From assembly GCA_938049335.1 (NCBI GenBank), contig CALIYX010000009.1, forward strand, positions 127,258 to 191,257: a stretch of DNA of 64,000 nucleotides, read 5' to 3'. The notes beneath the pieces are model-generated. The model was given only the letters and a program-made list of their open reading frames with translations, was not told where the DNA came from and ran no database searches. The stretch is from an uncultured Clostridia bacterium. GTDB taxonomy: Bacteria; Bacillota; Clostridia; Peptostreptococcales; Anaerovoracaceae. A program made the translations under genes and the position numbers. Positions 26,699 to 30,775 of the stretch are shown here, in pieces (position 1 is the stretch's first letter; every line of letters starts with the position of its first letter).

Positions 26699-28072
26699 CT
26701 AAAGATCGCTGATGGCGATTTCCTTCATTATCGCGCATTCCATACGCTTCTTGAAGAGCTCGCAGCCGAACTCGTAAACACCTCTGATATCGCCGGAAGA
26801 CTTAAAGCCATTAGCTGCACAGCCACCGCTACAATATAGCTTAGCCCAGCAATCACGGCAGTCCTCTCTAGCGTAGACATTGCACATTTTGAACTCATCC
26901 TTGATATCGTCTCTTTTGATTCCATCAAAGATATTGCCCATCAAATATTCAGGCTCACCAACAAACTGGTGACATGGATAGAGGTCTCCCTGAGGCGTCA
27001 CCGCAAAGTACTCTGTACCCGATCCGCAGCCCGAAATCCTCTTATATATGCAAGGTCCATGGTTCAAATCTATCATATAGTGATAGAAGGTGAAATCCTT
27101 GCCCTGCTTGTGCATCTCAATCATTTCCTTAGCAAGCTTTTCATACTGTTCAAAAATCACAGGAAGGTCTTCATTACTAAGCGCAAACTCGCTATCAGGC
27201 TCACAGACGACAGGCTCAAGTGACAGCTCATCAAAGCCTAGATATAGCATCTGCTTGATATCCTCGGTAAAGTCCGTATTGTACTTGGTATAGGTTCCGC
27301 GAATGTAGTAGCCCTTGCCACCGCGTGACTCAACGAGCTTCTGAAACTTAGGCACTATGACATCATAGCTACCCTTGCCGTCTGCAGTCGTTCTCTCACG
27401 GTCATGGACTTCCTTACGTCCATCTAGGCTCAAAACAACATTATGACATTCCTTATTGGCAAACTCAATAACCTCATCGTTTATGCCCATGCCATTAGTC
27501 GTAAGCGTAAATCTAAAGTTCTTACCGTGTTCCTTCTCAATCGACCTTGCGTAAGCAACCGTGTCCTTAACTACATCAAAGTTAAGAAGCGGCTCCCCGC
27601 CAAAGAAATCGACCTCGAGATTGCGTCTTGAACCTGAGTTTTCTATCAAAAAGTCAATGGCCCTACGAGCAATTTCCTTGCTCATGAGAGCGCTCTTTCC
27701 CTTAAATCTTCCCTGTCCTGCAAAGCAGTATGAACATGTCAAATCACATGTATGCGCAACATGAAGACATAGTGCCTTGATGTCTGTATGTCTGTTTTTT
27801 AGAACGCTTGCCTTAGGCTCGTAGATGTCCTCGGTAAACAGCTTAACCGCTTTCTTTAGTGAAACAACATCTTCATAGGTCTCGATTACCTCAGCCTCTG
27901 TCACATCCTCAAGATGCCCGTAGTTCTTCATGATGTATTCTACGATCTCGCCCTTAGTCTTCTCACAAAAAAGACGGATGATGTCATAAGCAACATCATC
28001 CACCACATGTACTGCTCCGCTATAAACGTCGATTACAATGTTGTAACCATTTAGCTTATACTGATGTACCAT
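26699..28072 (-). CDS. Radical SAM/SPASM maturase for the SCIFF ranthipeptide
   Basis: A 457-aa protein with a CxxxCxxC cluster (CDLTCSYC) and a C-terminal Cys-rich SPASM region. It is translationally coupled to the SCIFF precursor gene immediately upstream. Confidence 0.8.
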   Translation of the reverse strand: MVHQYKLNGYNIVIDVYSGAVHVVDDVAYDIIRLFCEKTKGEIVEYIMKNYGHLEDVTEAEVIETYEDVVSLKKAVKLFTEDIYEPKASVLKNRHTDIKALCLHVAHTCDLTCSYCFAGQGRFKGKSALMSKEIARRAIDFLIENSGSRRNLEVDFFGGEPLLNFDVVKDTVAYARSIEKEHGKNFRFTLTTNGMGINDEVIEFANKECHNVVLSLDGRKEVHDRERTTADGKGSYDVIVPKFQKLVESRGGKGYYIRGTYTKYNTDFTEDIKQMLYLGFDELSLEPVVCEPDSEFALSNEDLPVIFEQYEKLAKEMIEMHKQGKDFTFYHYMIDLNHGPCIYKRISGCGSGTEYFAVTPQGDLYPCHQFVGEPEYLMGNIFDGIKRDDIKDEFKMCNVYAREDCRDCWAKLYCSGGCAANGFKSSGDIRGVYEFGCELFKKRMECAIMKEIAISDL

Positions 28073-28073
28073 A

Positions 28074-28217
28074 CTAGTTCTTCTTCTCGCACTCCTGGTT
28101 AGCTACACCACATGAAGTCTTGCAAGCTGACTGGCATGATGTCTGGCACTCACCACAGCCGCCGTCCTTTAGGCTGTCCTTAAGATCTCTTGTCTCTATA
28201 GTCTTGATTCTCTTCAT
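28074..28217 (-). CDS. SCIFF precursor peptide (six cysteines in forty-five residues)
   Basis: I translated it from the minus strand as MKRIKTIETRDLKDSLKDGGCGECQTSCQSACKTSCGVANQECEKKN, 47 aa with 6 Cys. It carries the classic SCIFF motif GGCGECQTSCQSACKTSC. It is absent from the ORF track, which is cut off at 60 aa. Confidence 0.85.
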   Translation of the reverse strand: MKRIKTIETRDLKDSLKDGGCGECQTSCQSACKTSCGVANQECEKKN

Positions 28218-28360: not shown

Positions 28361-30004
28361 CTACTTTGTTGGCTTGTAGCTGCTCTTTAGCCCTACAATC
28401 TTATTGAATACCTTCTCATCTTCTGTGTTTAGCTTGCTATCTGCGATGTAGTATCCATGTCTAAAGAACTGGAAGCGTTCTCCCGCCTTTGCATCTGCAA
28501 GCGCTGGCTCTGCGTAGGCAATCTTCTCTACCTTAGATGCTTCATTAGGAACTAGATTTCCGTTCTCATCTTCTATCAAAAGTTGATCGTACTCTCTAAT
28601 CTTAATCTGAACAGCAGTCTTAGCATCAACGAAGTGGATTGTACCTTTAACCTTACGCTCTGTGAAGTCAAGTCCGCTTCTTGTTGCAGGATCATAGGTA
28701 CAGTGAAGCTCTTTGATGCTTCCATCTTCGTTTTTGATGACTTCCTCGCACTTGATGAAGTATGCGCCCTTGAATCTTACCTCGTTACCCGGAAAGAGTC
28801 TGAAATACTTCTTTGCAGGAACCTCCATGAAGTCCTCTCCATCGACGTAGAGTTCATTTGAGAATGGAATCTCTCTCACGCCCATCTCTGGAACATTCTT
28901 ATTGTTCTCTATCTCAACCATCTCTGTCTTGTCCTCAGGATAGTTTGTGATTACAACTTTGATAGGATTCTCAACTACGTTTCTGCTCTCAACCTTGTCC
29001 TGAAGGTCTTCTCTGACGCAGTGCTCAAGAAGTGATGATTCAACCGTGCTGTTAGCCTTTGCCACGCCTATTCTCTCACAGAAGTCTCTGATTGCCTCAG
29101 GTGTATAGCCTCTTCTTCTCAGGCCTGCAATGGTAGGCATGCGCGGATCATCCCAGCCCTCAACAACGCCGTCATCAACTAGTCCCTTTAGAAGTCTCTT
29201 GCTCATAACCGTTCCTGTTAGATTAAGTCTTGCAAACTCAATCTGGCGAGGTGGATTTTCCCAAAAGCCAACTTCATCCAAAACCCAGTTGTATAGCGGT
29301 CTGTGGTCCTCAAACTCTAGCGAGCAAAGCGAATGTGTGATTCCTTCAATCGCATCCTCTATAGGGTGAGCAAAGTCGTACATCGGATAGATGCACCATT
29401 CGTCTCCAGTGTTGTGGTGTGTGGCATGCGCAATCCTGTAAATTACAGGGTCTCTCATGTTTATATTAGGAGATGACATATCAATCTTTGCTCTTAGGAC
29501 CTTTTCGCCATCGGCGAACTTGCCAGCTCTCATATCCTCGAACAAAGCGAGATTCTCCTCTACACTTCTGTTTCTAAATGGGCTTTCCTTACCAGGCTCC
29601 TTAAGTGTTCCTCTGTACTCTTTAATCTGCTCTGCAGTAAGGTCATCTACAAAGGCCTTTCCTTTTTTGATTAAGGCAACAGCAGCATCGTACATTGTCT
29701 CAAAATATGAAGACGCCCATAGCTGTTTCTCCCACTTAAAACCAAGCCACTTGATGTCCTCTTCGATTGCATCAACATACTCTACATCCTCCTTGACAGG
29801 GTTTGTATCGTCATATCTGAGATTGCACTTTCCATTGTACTTTAGCGCAGTTGTGAAGTTGACGCAAATTGCCTTAGCATGTCCGATGTGTAGATAGCCA
29901 TTTGGCTCAGGCGGAAAACGAGTATATACCTCTTTGTATACTCCATCCTCCAAGTCCTTGTCTATGAAATTATGTATAAAGTTATTTGAAATAGGTTCGC
30001 TCAT
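28361..30004 (-). CDS. glnS: Glutaminyl-tRNA synthetase
   Basis: A 547-aa protein with a HIGH motif (HIGHAKA) and a KMSKS-like motif (VMSKR). RBS GGTAGGAGGCAAAG-ATG. Confidence 0.85.
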
Positions 30005-30155
30005 CTTTGCCTCCTACCGTTTATTAGCACCTTGTAGTATATCATAAAATCTACTTATTTTAAACAAGTATGGGAAATTAAATCCCCTAACTAGACTTAT
30101 GCTATACTACTTCTGTTGTCATTCTCCAAACCGGCAACGGAAAGGAGGTGCAAAA

Positions 30156-30251
30156 GTGCTTAAGCTATTGGCTTTCATATCGGCTATTATGGCAGAAGTA
30201 ATCGCACATTACATCTGCAAGTGGTTAGATAGTCTAAGTGATGACAATTAG
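30156..30251 (+). CDS. Candidate type I toxin: 31-aa Fst-like hydrophobic peptide (GTG start)
   Basis: The strong SD AAAGGAGGTG lies 7 nt before GTG. The translation is MLKLLAFISAIMAEVIAHYICKWLDSLSDDN, a TM helix with an acidic tail. A bidirectional terminator follows within 8 nt, and an extended -10 (TGcTATACT, 30101-30109) lies upstream. At <60 aa it is not in the ORF track. Confidence 0.5.
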   Translation: MLKLLAFISAIMAEVIAHYICKWLDSLSDDN

Positions 30252-30255
30252 CCCA

Positions 30256-30322
30256 ATGAAAAAGACGGAGTCGCACCTCCGTCTTTTTTGGCGTGCAAAA
30301 GTGCATGCCGTTGGCTTTTATT
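30256..30322 (-). ncRNA. Candidate antitoxin sRNA (~65 nt) convergent with the 31-aa ORF
   Basis: It is predicted from the promoter at 30329-30356 through to the shared terminator. It contains GCACUUUUGCAC, which is complementary to the SD and start region of the peptide mRNA. The 12-nt direct repeat GTGCAAAAGTGC occurs at 30148-30159 and at 30293-30304. Confidence 0.4.
30259..30288. terminator. Bidirectional rho-independent terminator (A-run/stem/T-run)
   Basis: The hairpin is AAAAAGACGGAG-tcgcac-CTCCGTCTTTTT with a 12-bp stem. Uridine tracts are available in both transcription directions. Confidence 0.7.
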
Positions 30323-30328
30323 ACCTAT

Positions 30329-30356
30329 ATTATATCACAGTGCAATTCGATGTCAA
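30329..30356 (-). promoter_or_regulatory. Near-consensus sigma-A promoter driving the antisense sRNA (TTGACA-16 nt-TGaTATAAT)
   Basis: On the minus strand the -35 TTGACA is at plus 30351-30356, the TG at 30336-30337 and TATAAT at 30329-30334. No protein-coding gene lies downstream before the terminator. Confidence 0.5.
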
Positions 30357-30409
30357 CTTTCCAAACTTCTGTATGGGAAATTCGCAAAGCCTGTATTTTT
30401 CAGATGCGT

Positions 30410-30775
30410 TTAGGCTTTTCGCATAGTTCTACTTGACACGAGATTTACACCCGTTCCTAGAAAATCAGCTATGATAACCTGGTTTACGGCAATCGGTGCC
30501 TGAACTTTGATAGTTTTTATTTCATCCATTGCCTCCTGCCACATGTCAAGCGGCATTTCTCCATCCGTTATGACTGGGATAACTCTGCTCAAAGCGCCCT
30601 CTATCCTAACCGTTGATGTAAGGATTCGCATAGGTCTTATTACCTCTTGGCGCGCGTAATTTAGACCTTCCTTACAGCCATATCCCTGTACATCTTTGAC
30701 CTCATCTCCCTCAAGCTGCACTGTTACATTGCAGCCCTTTGGGCAGTTGACACAAACTAATTCCTCTTGTCTCAT
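30410..30775 (-). CDS. DUF1667-family protein (Cys-rich N-terminus)
   Basis: A 121-aa protein with N-terminus CVNCPKGC. It is the third gene of the conserved FAD-oxidoreductase trio. Confidence 0.6.
   Translation of the reverse strand: MRQEELVCVNCPKGCNVTVQLEGDEVKDVQGYGCKEGLNYARQEVIRPMRILTSTVRIEGALSRVIPVITDGEMPLDMWQEAMDEIKTIKVQAPIAVNQVIIADFLGTGVNLVSSRTMRKA

Follow-up and report, generated by a model that had tools for sequence, protein, structure and literature searches.

A probable par/Fst-type toxin–antitoxin module on a cassette inserted upstream of glnS in an uncultured Clostridia bacterium, and its peptide family

Introduction

The par locus of Enterococcus faecalis pAD1 produces the message for the Fst toxin (RNA I) and an antitoxin small RNA (sRNA; RNA II) from convergent promoters that share a bidirectional terminator (PMC7472228). 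Two direct repeats render the 5′ end of the sRNA complementary to the Shine-Dalgarno (SD) and start region of the message, outside the segment in which the transcripts overlap, and a 5′ stem-loop lies over the SD sequence (PMC7472228). The sRNA is ~65 nt long, and the toxin of ~30 residues consists of a transmembrane (TM) helix, a W/V-LD sequence and an acidic tail (PMC7472228). Here we describe a locus whose predicted parts resemble par in each of these respects. It lies in a 64,000-nucleotide stretch of contig CALIYX010000009.1 (hereafter the window) from an uncultured Clostridia bacterium of the Anaerovoracaceae, and we consider it, with a probability of roughly 80%, to be a par/Fst-type type I toxin–antitoxin (TA) module carried by a 291-bp cassette that was inserted 5′ of glnS.

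Further type I modules of the Fst family are SprA1/SprA1AS (toxin PepA1) and SprA2/SprA2AS of Staphylococcus aureus, Fst-Sm/srSm of Streptococcus mutans and Lpt/RNAII of Lacticaseibacillus rhamnosus, which are found on chromosomes, plasmids or pathogenicity islands (PMC7472228, PMC8594479, PMC3543317). As predicted for the locus described here, their sRNAs are encoded 3′ of the toxin and act through a non-overlapping 5′ region (PMC7472228, PMC8594479, PMC3543317). In Clostridia, the only Ldr/Fst-like toxins reported are Fst-like sequences of Clostridium bolteae and C. asparagiforme (PMC2887945, PMC6563280), which we compared by description only and whose hosts are Lachnospiraceae, as are many hosts of the peptide family described below. 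The Ldr/Rdl and hok/sok systems of enterobacteria also use alternative mRNA folds to govern translation, and Ldr has the Fst/Ldr peptide signature; however, their antitoxins lie opposite the 5′ leader, which holds a leader ORF (PMC7472228), an arrangement that the window locus lacks. Clostridioides difficile has small TM toxins with antisense RNA antitoxins as well (CD2517.1/RCd8 and relatives; NCBIfam model NF047374), and these are type I systems of Clostridia. The C. difficile toxins are ~50 residues long with Lys-rich tails, and their antisense RNAs overlap the toxin transcripts extensively.

Results

Organization of the locus

The first-pass annotation, made from the window sequence alone, had placed in a gap of ~400 bp a 31-codon open reading frame (ORF) with an SD sequence, an extended −10 box 5′ of it, a 12-bp-stem terminator between A- and T-runs within 8 nt of the stop codon and a near-consensus minus-strand promoter, and each of these parts is present. 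The gap measures 405 bp in the ORF listing, between the start of glnS (30004) and the end of a DUF1667/FAD-oxidoreductase operon (30410). On the plus strand, the extended −10 box TGcTATACT at 30100–30108 would give rise to a toxin mRNA of ~175 nt (30115–30289), with ends placed by the −10 box and the terminator and a predicted fold energy of −60 kcal/mol (z = −4.25 relative to shuffled sequences). The SD sequence GGAGG (30144–30148, plus strand) stands 7 nt 5′ of the start codon of the toxin ORF, which runs on the plus strand from GTG at 30156 to TAG at 30251. Its product, MLKLLAFISAIMAEVIAHYICKWLDSLSDDN, is predicted to be a single TM helix and has a HYICKWLD motif and an acidic tail.

An intrinsic terminator at 30259–30289, recognized by sequence and folding and predicted to be bidirectional, begins 7–8 nt past the toxin stop codon. 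Its 12-bp stem (arms 30259–30270 and 30277–30288) carries the loop TCGCAC and is flanked by an A-run and a T-run. The promoter that faces the toxin gene, TTGACA-16-TGaTATAAT (30329–30356, minus strand), scores 12/12 against the consensus and is the sole promoter to do so on either strand of the entire 64-kb window. It would yield an antitoxin sRNA of ~66 nt (30257–30322, minus strand; predicted ends) in which a 5′ recognition region precedes the terminator hairpin, with a fold energy of −27 kcal/mol (z = −4.73 relative to shuffles). Both the peptide and the module occur only once in the window.

Complementarity between the predicted sRNA and the toxin message

How would the sRNA recognize its target? 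The 12-mer GTGCAAAAGTGC, reported by the first-pass annotation as a plus-strand repeat, has exactly two occurrences in the window (30148–30159 and 30293–30304). Exact 12-mer direct repeats within 200 nt of one another number eight in the window compared with ~2.2 in shuffled sequence, and one such repeat alone is weak evidence for an antisense design. However, the complementarity is bipartite, since a second block, TTGGCTTT, is found at 30168–30175 and again at 30311–30318. The first copy of the two-block repeat (30148–30175, plus strand) covers the end of the SD sequence, the start codon and codons 2–7; the second (30293–30318, plus strand) is the predicted template of the sRNA 5′ recognition region. 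Because the two direct repeats are read in opposite directions, the sRNA is complementary, over its first ~30 nt, to the stretch of mRNA that runs from the SD sequence to codon 7. The predicted duplex between the sRNA 5′ end and mRNA positions 30143–30176 has an energy of −35.7 kcal/mol, compared with −15.5 ± 3.1 kcal/mol for shuffled controls (n = 500), none of which was equally good. The pairing across the toxin ribosome-binding site is thus longer than had been noted. The terminator hairpins of the two RNAs are also mutually complementary.

The first-pass annotation had held that the repeat would look accidental if it were not kept with the ORF in homologous loci. We measured the longest direct repeat shared by the start region (−45 to +25) and the 200 nt past the stop codon in 77 non-redundant homologous loci. 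The mean length was 10.6 nt, compared with 6.9 nt for a reverse-complement control and 6.7 nt for shuffles, and repeats of at least 10 nt occurred in 53 of the 77 loci and in none of the 77 controls. Their position is constant, from −8 to +15 around the start codon and 55–100 nt past the stop codon, and their sequence varies between loci. An all-against-all test of toxin start regions and antisense strands from 75 loci gave a mean duplex energy of −46.2 kcal/mol for cognate pairs versus −30.2 ± 5.6 kcal/mol for non-cognate pairs; the cognate partner ranked first of 75 in 54 loci and within the top three in 67. This preference for the cognate partner is co-variation of the kind that a specific antisense pair would be expected to leave in the sequences.

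Copies from E. faecium, Mogibacterium and Streptococcus sanguinis that were read by hand have imperfect repeats of 25–30 nt, with the predicted start of the sRNA right at the repeat. As a positive control, six Fst loci annotated by the Prokaryotic Genome Annotation Pipeline (PGAP) were passed through the same scripts, and five of the six returned repeats of 12–15 nt, located at −9 to +9 around the start codon and 77–97 nt past the stop codon, with duplexes of −48 to −57 kcal/mol.

Promoters and terminators of the family

The facing promoter was scored with one point per hexamer match (12 in all) and one more for an upstream TG, with a threshold of at least 9, and was found in 73 of 75 family loci. 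A toxin promoter-like site was likewise found in 73 of the 75, with the TG extension in 56 and the −10 box mostly 38–60 nt 5′ of the start codon. A terminator hairpin with a perfect stem is present in 53 loci, 45 of which have A- and T-runs on both sides. The par-like logic proposed by the first-pass annotation therefore recurs as an architecture in the 75 homologous loci, and annotated Fst loci give like numbers in five of six cases.

The family terminator loops are 6–7 nt long and often read YUGCMA (CTGCCA, CTGCAA, TCGCAC) with a conserved central GC; the loop of the window terminator occupies 30271–30276. The conserved GC could act as a kissing-loop contact. On inspection, no YUNR U-turn was evident in the terminator loops of the family loci, the window loop included.

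A folded leader on the toxin message

The minimum free energy fold of the window mRNA pairs UCUCC (30123–30127) with the GGAGG of the SD sequence (30144–30148), giving a 5′ stem-loop (30123–30148, plus strand) with an inner CCG/CGG stem and a GCAA loop (30131–30140) that would sequester the SD sequence. An alternative helix between GUUGUC (30115–30120) and GGCAAC (30133–30138; overall 30115–30138, plus strand) is incompatible with this fold. Both helices were assessed in an alignment of 30 5′ untranslated regions (UTRs) of the window's class, which have the form GTTGTCA-yyCCC-AAUC-CyG-GCAA-CrG-rAA-GGrGG. For the SD stem-loop, 87.8% of cells are paired and 17 are double-change cells, with CG↔UA compensatory changes at two pairs; for the alternative helix, GUUGYC:GRCAAC, 94.3% are paired and 15 are double-change cells. 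Both exceed all 500 column shuffles (0/500 as high in each case) as well as slid controls, counts that are suggestive and should not be read as probabilities because the aligned sequences are related. The presence of two mutually exclusive helices suggests a conformational switch, and such alternative folds would fit the control by metastable structure known for the par and hok mRNAs.

A fold-back of the mRNA, in which 5′ GUUGUC would pair with the terminal ..DN codons (GACAAY), was rejected as too weak (−11.1 versus −8.0 kcal/mol). Copies from Enterococcus and S. sanguinis (L079, 2598–2630; L081, 1521–1550) share an additional conserved element in the 3′ UTR, located past the stop codon and ahead of the terminator, CCCGTTAAT(T)CTTA(TA)ATAGAA(A)CGTAAAA, which is absent from the window.

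The peptide and its family

Fst and Ldr toxins share a signature of a hydrophobic TM helix, a conserved Trp and a charged C-terminus (PMC2887945, PMC7472228). The peptides of the family considered here are 24–41 residues long and have the consensus M..hhSFhhSVxAGVVxHYICKWLD followed by a polar or charged tail. For the window peptide, AlphaFold predicts one helix spanning residues 2–29 with a predicted local distance difference test score of 92; mean hydropathy over residues 2–21 is 1.76. W23, which lies between the helix and the tail, is invariant in 73 sequences, and the tail has a net charge of −3 (family tails are 49% charged). In helix, Trp and charged tail, the window peptide thus shows the published signature. 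The codons of the motif have entropies of 0.23, 0.01 and 0.93 bits at positions 1, 2 and 3, and all six Leu codons are in use. Variation in these codons is thus nearly confined to the third position, which indicates selection on the protein, with the caveat that the amino-acid motif formed part of the retrieval pattern.

Several observations weigh against taking the locus for an Fst-type toxin module. None of the 73 family members matches the Pfam model PF13955 (Fst_toxin), and neither does the window peptide. The best family score against the NCBIfam model NF033608 (type_I_tox_Fst) is 10.6 bits at a cut-off of 26, a model that detected the controls Fst at 34.7 bits and PepA1 at 58.3 bits. The majority of Fst/Ldr toxins, not all, have a [PDST]xxxG(C) motif in the TM helix, of which the Pro and Gly are essential in Fst itself (PMC7472228). 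The window peptide lacks this motif, with A10 and E14 at the corresponding positions; in relatives, Ser occupies the first position in 51 of 67 and Gly the last in 30 of 67, and both are found in only 28. Five residues of the family motif (Y, K, W, L and D) do not vary, a conservation of HYICKWLD that was imposed in part by the pattern with which the loci were retrieved. The toxin promoter of the window has a poor −35 element, and the cognate pairing signal is absent in 6 of the 75 loci. Moreover, the profile alignment that links the two groups of peptides, made with hhalign between the 73 family members and six PGAP-annotated Fst toxins (94.6% probability, E = 6.7e-8, 33 columns, full length), is of a kind that may overstate relatedness for short hydrophobic peptides.

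In that alignment, WLD and the tail are matched to the consensus of the annotated Fst toxins, ...LIVAPxFVGxVxxLxSHWLDExDDN. On the strength of the Fst/Ldr signature, the hhalign result and the name that UniRef gives to one Blautia homologue, 'Type I toxin-antitoxin system Fst family toxin', we assign the HYICKWLD family to the Fst superfamily, as a clade that has diverged, and not to a new kind of toxin, despite the failure of the curated hidden Markov models (HMMs). The peptide design recognized by the first-pass annotation therefore stands, with the qualification that the curated Fst models do not detect the peptide. Relative to Fst, the family has the core SxxxG/AxxxE...HYICKWLD in place of APxxxG...SR(V/W)LDE, is one residue shorter between the G position and the Trp, escapes PF13955 and NF033608, shows no evident YUNR U-turn in the window loop TCGCAC and resides mostly in Clostridia and Negativicutes. 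The Spr, Fst-Sm and Lpt toxins differ from it in that they have PxxxG(C) and match NF033608.

Scans of the window peptide against Pfam and NCBIfam returned no family, and a search of PDB sequences with the family profile found nothing. PF16935 (TxpA, 'putative holin-like toxin') matched 1 of the 73 members at E = 0.16, and NF047374 matched at 14–18 bits over the N-terminal helix only, against a cut-off of 60. Matches to DUF2158 (39 of 73 members, best E = 0.009) and to the Ldr_toxin model (6 of 73) fell far under the cut-off and were treated as noise.

Hosts and annotation

A scan of one genome per species (596 Gb) with the motif pattern yielded 564 matches, compared with ~7 expected by chance by our own arithmetic; tblastn confirmed the family in 341 genomes. 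The hosts include Lachnospiraceae, Oscillospiraceae, Peptoniphilaceae, Peptococcus, Negativicutes, Streptococcus and others. Homology searches used the 50-residue ATG-extended form of the window ORF as query and an alignment headed by a 41-residue member; the profile search gave 1334 clusters at 90% identity, and an exhaustive HMMER search gave 1908 representatives at 50% identity. By tblastn the family is present on 510 plasmids, 451 of them from Enterococcus (mostly E. faecium, for example NZ_CP012432), and it is enriched on conjugative plasmids. A 4.5-kb plasmid of Mogibacterium has a family copy beside rep, and in satellite phages of S. sanguinis the copies adjoin the integrase.

Where family genes are called at all they are labelled 'hypothetical protein', and RefSeq plasmid records label true Fst genes but not those of the HYICKWLD family. 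The term 'unannotated' in the first-pass annotation accordingly holds for this locus and for the 510 plasmids and falls short in one respect, since UniRef already names the Blautia homologue an Fst family toxin. Some members carry the precomputed Pfam accession PF28423.1 (P0048, P0098, P0110, P0131, P0135), and full-text literature searches for YICKWLD, CKWLD and PF28423 returned nothing relevant. PGAP names a Peptococcus member 'DUF2158 domain-containing protein', which is probably a weak spurious match.

The extended ORF matched an S. sanguinis 'protein' with the common segment IMAEVIA...HY[IL]CKWLDS and an acidic tail, and the match also has a spurious N-terminus, MLYYF...KGG, in which the −10 box and SD sequence are read as codons. 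Gene callers often extend family ORFs in this way to an ATG within the −10 box (aTGcTATACT gives MLYYF, and the SD sequence gives KGG), as at 30099–30155 of the window; the same artefact affects a PGAP-annotated true Fst gene (L168, 303–446; MLYSFMATAPKGGVVMLKE...). Modules are often arranged in tandem, with three identical copies at a 1087-bp period in Clostridium sp. Marseille-P2415 (L038, 2995–5264) and two copies within 6 kb in seven more loci (L012, L021, L048, L052, L070, L073 and L078). Matches outside Firmicutes were seen on a 2.5-kb contig of Cuspidothrix issatschenkoi (L045) and a 353-bp contig of Candidatus [Bacteroides] periocalifornicus (L011). Their peptides are near-identical to streptococcal and Selenomonas peptides, and the two contigs probably reflect contamination or mis-binning and not true host range.

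Gain and loss of the module among near-identical strains

Metagenome contigs anchored on glutaminyl-tRNA synthetase (GlnRS) provided alleles of the site from near-identical strains. Two contigs have the full module, L083 with 100% and L090 with 98.6% identity to the window over the region compared, and the L090 peptide differs by a single conservative change, F7L. Four contigs (L086, L087, L088 and L092) have an empty site, in which flanks 87–100% identical to the window are joined through a single copy of GTATGGGAAATT; in L093, a more distant outgroup, the site is also empty and a single diverged copy of the 12-mer is present. GlnRS is 99–100% identical in strains that lack the whole segment. 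Because GTATGGGAAATT stands on both sides of the module in the window (30068–30079 on the left and 30371–30382 on the right) and is single in the empty sites, the insert is defined as a 291-bp cassette (30080–30370; 303 bp with one repeat copy) bounded by a 12-bp duplication. Within the cassette lie the two promoters together with the ORF, terminator and sRNA.

Two further alleles carry deletions. L089 lacks the equivalent of window positions ~30065–30191, from the toxin promoter to codon 12, and L084 and L104 lack ~30072–30236, from the toxin promoter to codon 27. Both deletions leave the terminator, the sRNA and the sRNA promoter unchanged, which makes them orphan antitoxin alleles, and no allele with the toxin and without the sRNA was found among those recovered. 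Loss of the toxin first is what one would expect of a peptide that does harm when its sRNA is missing, and with only two independent events the pattern is suggestive. The empty alleles may stem from precise excision rather than from the absence of an insertion; in either case, the 12-bp duplication points to an insertion event.

Is the cassette then a mobile unit? DNA similarity between modules stops at the two promoters. In E. faecium rep_cluster_889 plasmids, one site between a hypothetical gene and ssb holds either the module (L079, 2405–2740) or another cassette (L169, 400–790) that encodes an unrelated 'putative holin-like toxin' (LPVETALGLMISFGSLIATIIFGILAVVNNNQKK), with nearly identical flanks and an interior that cannot be aligned. 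The module, which measures ~340 bp in the E. faecium plasmid copy, is also found alone in other contexts on E. faecium plasmids, at ~81% identity. Bracketing repeats of at least 10 nt occur in 18 of 74 loci compared with 7 of 74 controls; target duplication is unsupported as a general feature of the family because the long bracketing repeats are mostly tandem module copies. We advance only as a doubtful proposal that the ~290-bp promoter-to-promoter cassette might be a mobile unit that inserted with a 12-bp target duplication and has no recombinase gene of its own. At the Enterococcus plasmid site, cassettes of different type I toxin families replace one another. Were the proposal true, minimal type I TA modules would move as discrete units by an undescribed mechanism, contrary to the view that vertical descent and local duplication account for most of the spread of type I systems (PMC2887945, PMC5367252).

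Discussion

The reading of the locus as a par/Fst-type module has direct support from the anatomy of the sequence, from conservation and co-variation in 75 loci, from peptide homology and protein-level selection, and from the insertion and deletion polymorphism. The transcript ends, the relative stabilities of the RNAs, translational repression and toxicity are taken by analogy from the par paradigm (PMC7472228). On this model, the extended −10 promoter of the plus strand would produce the ~175-nt mRNA for a 31-residue single-helix membrane peptide, and the mRNA's own 5′ stem-loop would hide the SD sequence and delay translation. The strong consensus promoter of the minus strand would constitutively produce the ~66-nt sRNA, which would stop at the same bidirectional terminator. 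The complementary terminator hairpins would be the probable site of first contact, as in par (PMC7472228), after which the 5′ end of the sRNA would mask the toxin ribosome-binding site; pairing would probably also fix the fate of the mRNA. An unstable sRNA would disappear once its synthesis stops, and the stable mRNA would then be translated into a peptide that damages the membrane.

An alternative hypothesis is that the same RNA design places a small membrane protein of ordinary physiological role under antisense control, without forming a TA or addiction pair. The window peptide lacks the PxxxG-type motif on which the toxicity of Fst depends (PMC7472228), and this fits the idea, as does the fact that chromosomal Fst homologues have no known phenotype (PMC7472228). 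However, the peptide aligns with toxic Fst peptides, and the family is enriched on conjugative plasmids, sits beside rep on a 4.5-kb plasmid and is carried by satellite phages. Furthermore, both observed deletions lose the peptide gene and retain the sRNA, and in E. faecium plasmids the module is exchangeable with a different type I toxin cassette at the same site. We therefore regard a non-toxic role as unlikely. It is less probable still that the locus was once of par type and is now a decaying remnant of an old insertion. The weak −35 element of the toxin promoter and the decay by deletion of sister alleles could be read in that way, but all parts are intact in the window allele, to which L083 is identical over the region compared and L090 98.6% identical (with the single conservative F7L change), and an extended −10 box without a good −35 element is the rule in the family (56 of 73).

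Could the signals instead belong to the neighbouring genes? The minus-strand promoter is directed at glnS, so that it might belong to a glnS leader or attenuator such as a T-box, or the terminator might serve the oxidoreductase operon, with the ORF and the repeat arising by chance; the single 12-mer repeat is, as noted, only weakly unusual. Yet glnS has a promoter-like site of its own at 30064–30036, strains with 99–100% identical GlnRS lack the entire segment, and promoter, terminator, repeat and ORF travel together in unrelated contexts in the 75 loci. Rfam covariance models run over 29950–30450 gave a best score of 22.3 bits against a gathering score of 45, with no T-box and no known antitoxin RNA. 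The empty-site strains, the lack of an Rfam match and the separate promoter-like site contradict the glnS leader or T-box version, and we find any derivation of the signals from the neighbours scarcely credible. The par/Fst-type module thus remains the preferred reading.

This kind of system is already well known, and what is new is an unannotated locus, a large overlooked clade, and allele-level evidence for gain and toxin-first decay; to a specialist the results will be useful and not very surprising. A large branch of Fst/par modules has been invisible to PF13955, NF033608 and PGAP. The clostridial and Negativicutes range of par-type modules, represented in reviews by C. bolteae and C. asparagiforme alone (PMC6563280), is greatly widened, with modules now placed in Lachnospiraceae, Oscillospiraceae, Peptoniphilaceae, Negativicutes and streptococcal satellite phages. 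A toxin HMM combined with a promoter-terminator-repeat rule would let annotators call both the toxin and its sRNA. The family also provides a natural set of co-varying toxin–sRNA pairs for studies of RNA antitoxin specificity, and the full, empty and toxin-deleted alleles of near-identical strains give a rare glimpse, at the population level, of the gain and decay of a type I module.

Surroundings of the module

The promoter-like site of glnS (minus strand) reads TTTAAA-17-TGnTATACT. A small hairpin at 30087–30072 precedes it and overlaps the left copy of the 12-bp repeat. Because the strong sRNA promoter is directed at glnS, read-through of the terminator could influence glnS expression. A gene for a SCIFF six-cysteine peptide (28074–28217) and one for its radical-SAM maturase (26699–28072) adjoin glnS, a pair that identifies the host as being of Clostridia type. 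Metagenome contigs that match the window include L083 at 100% and L082 at 97.8% identity.

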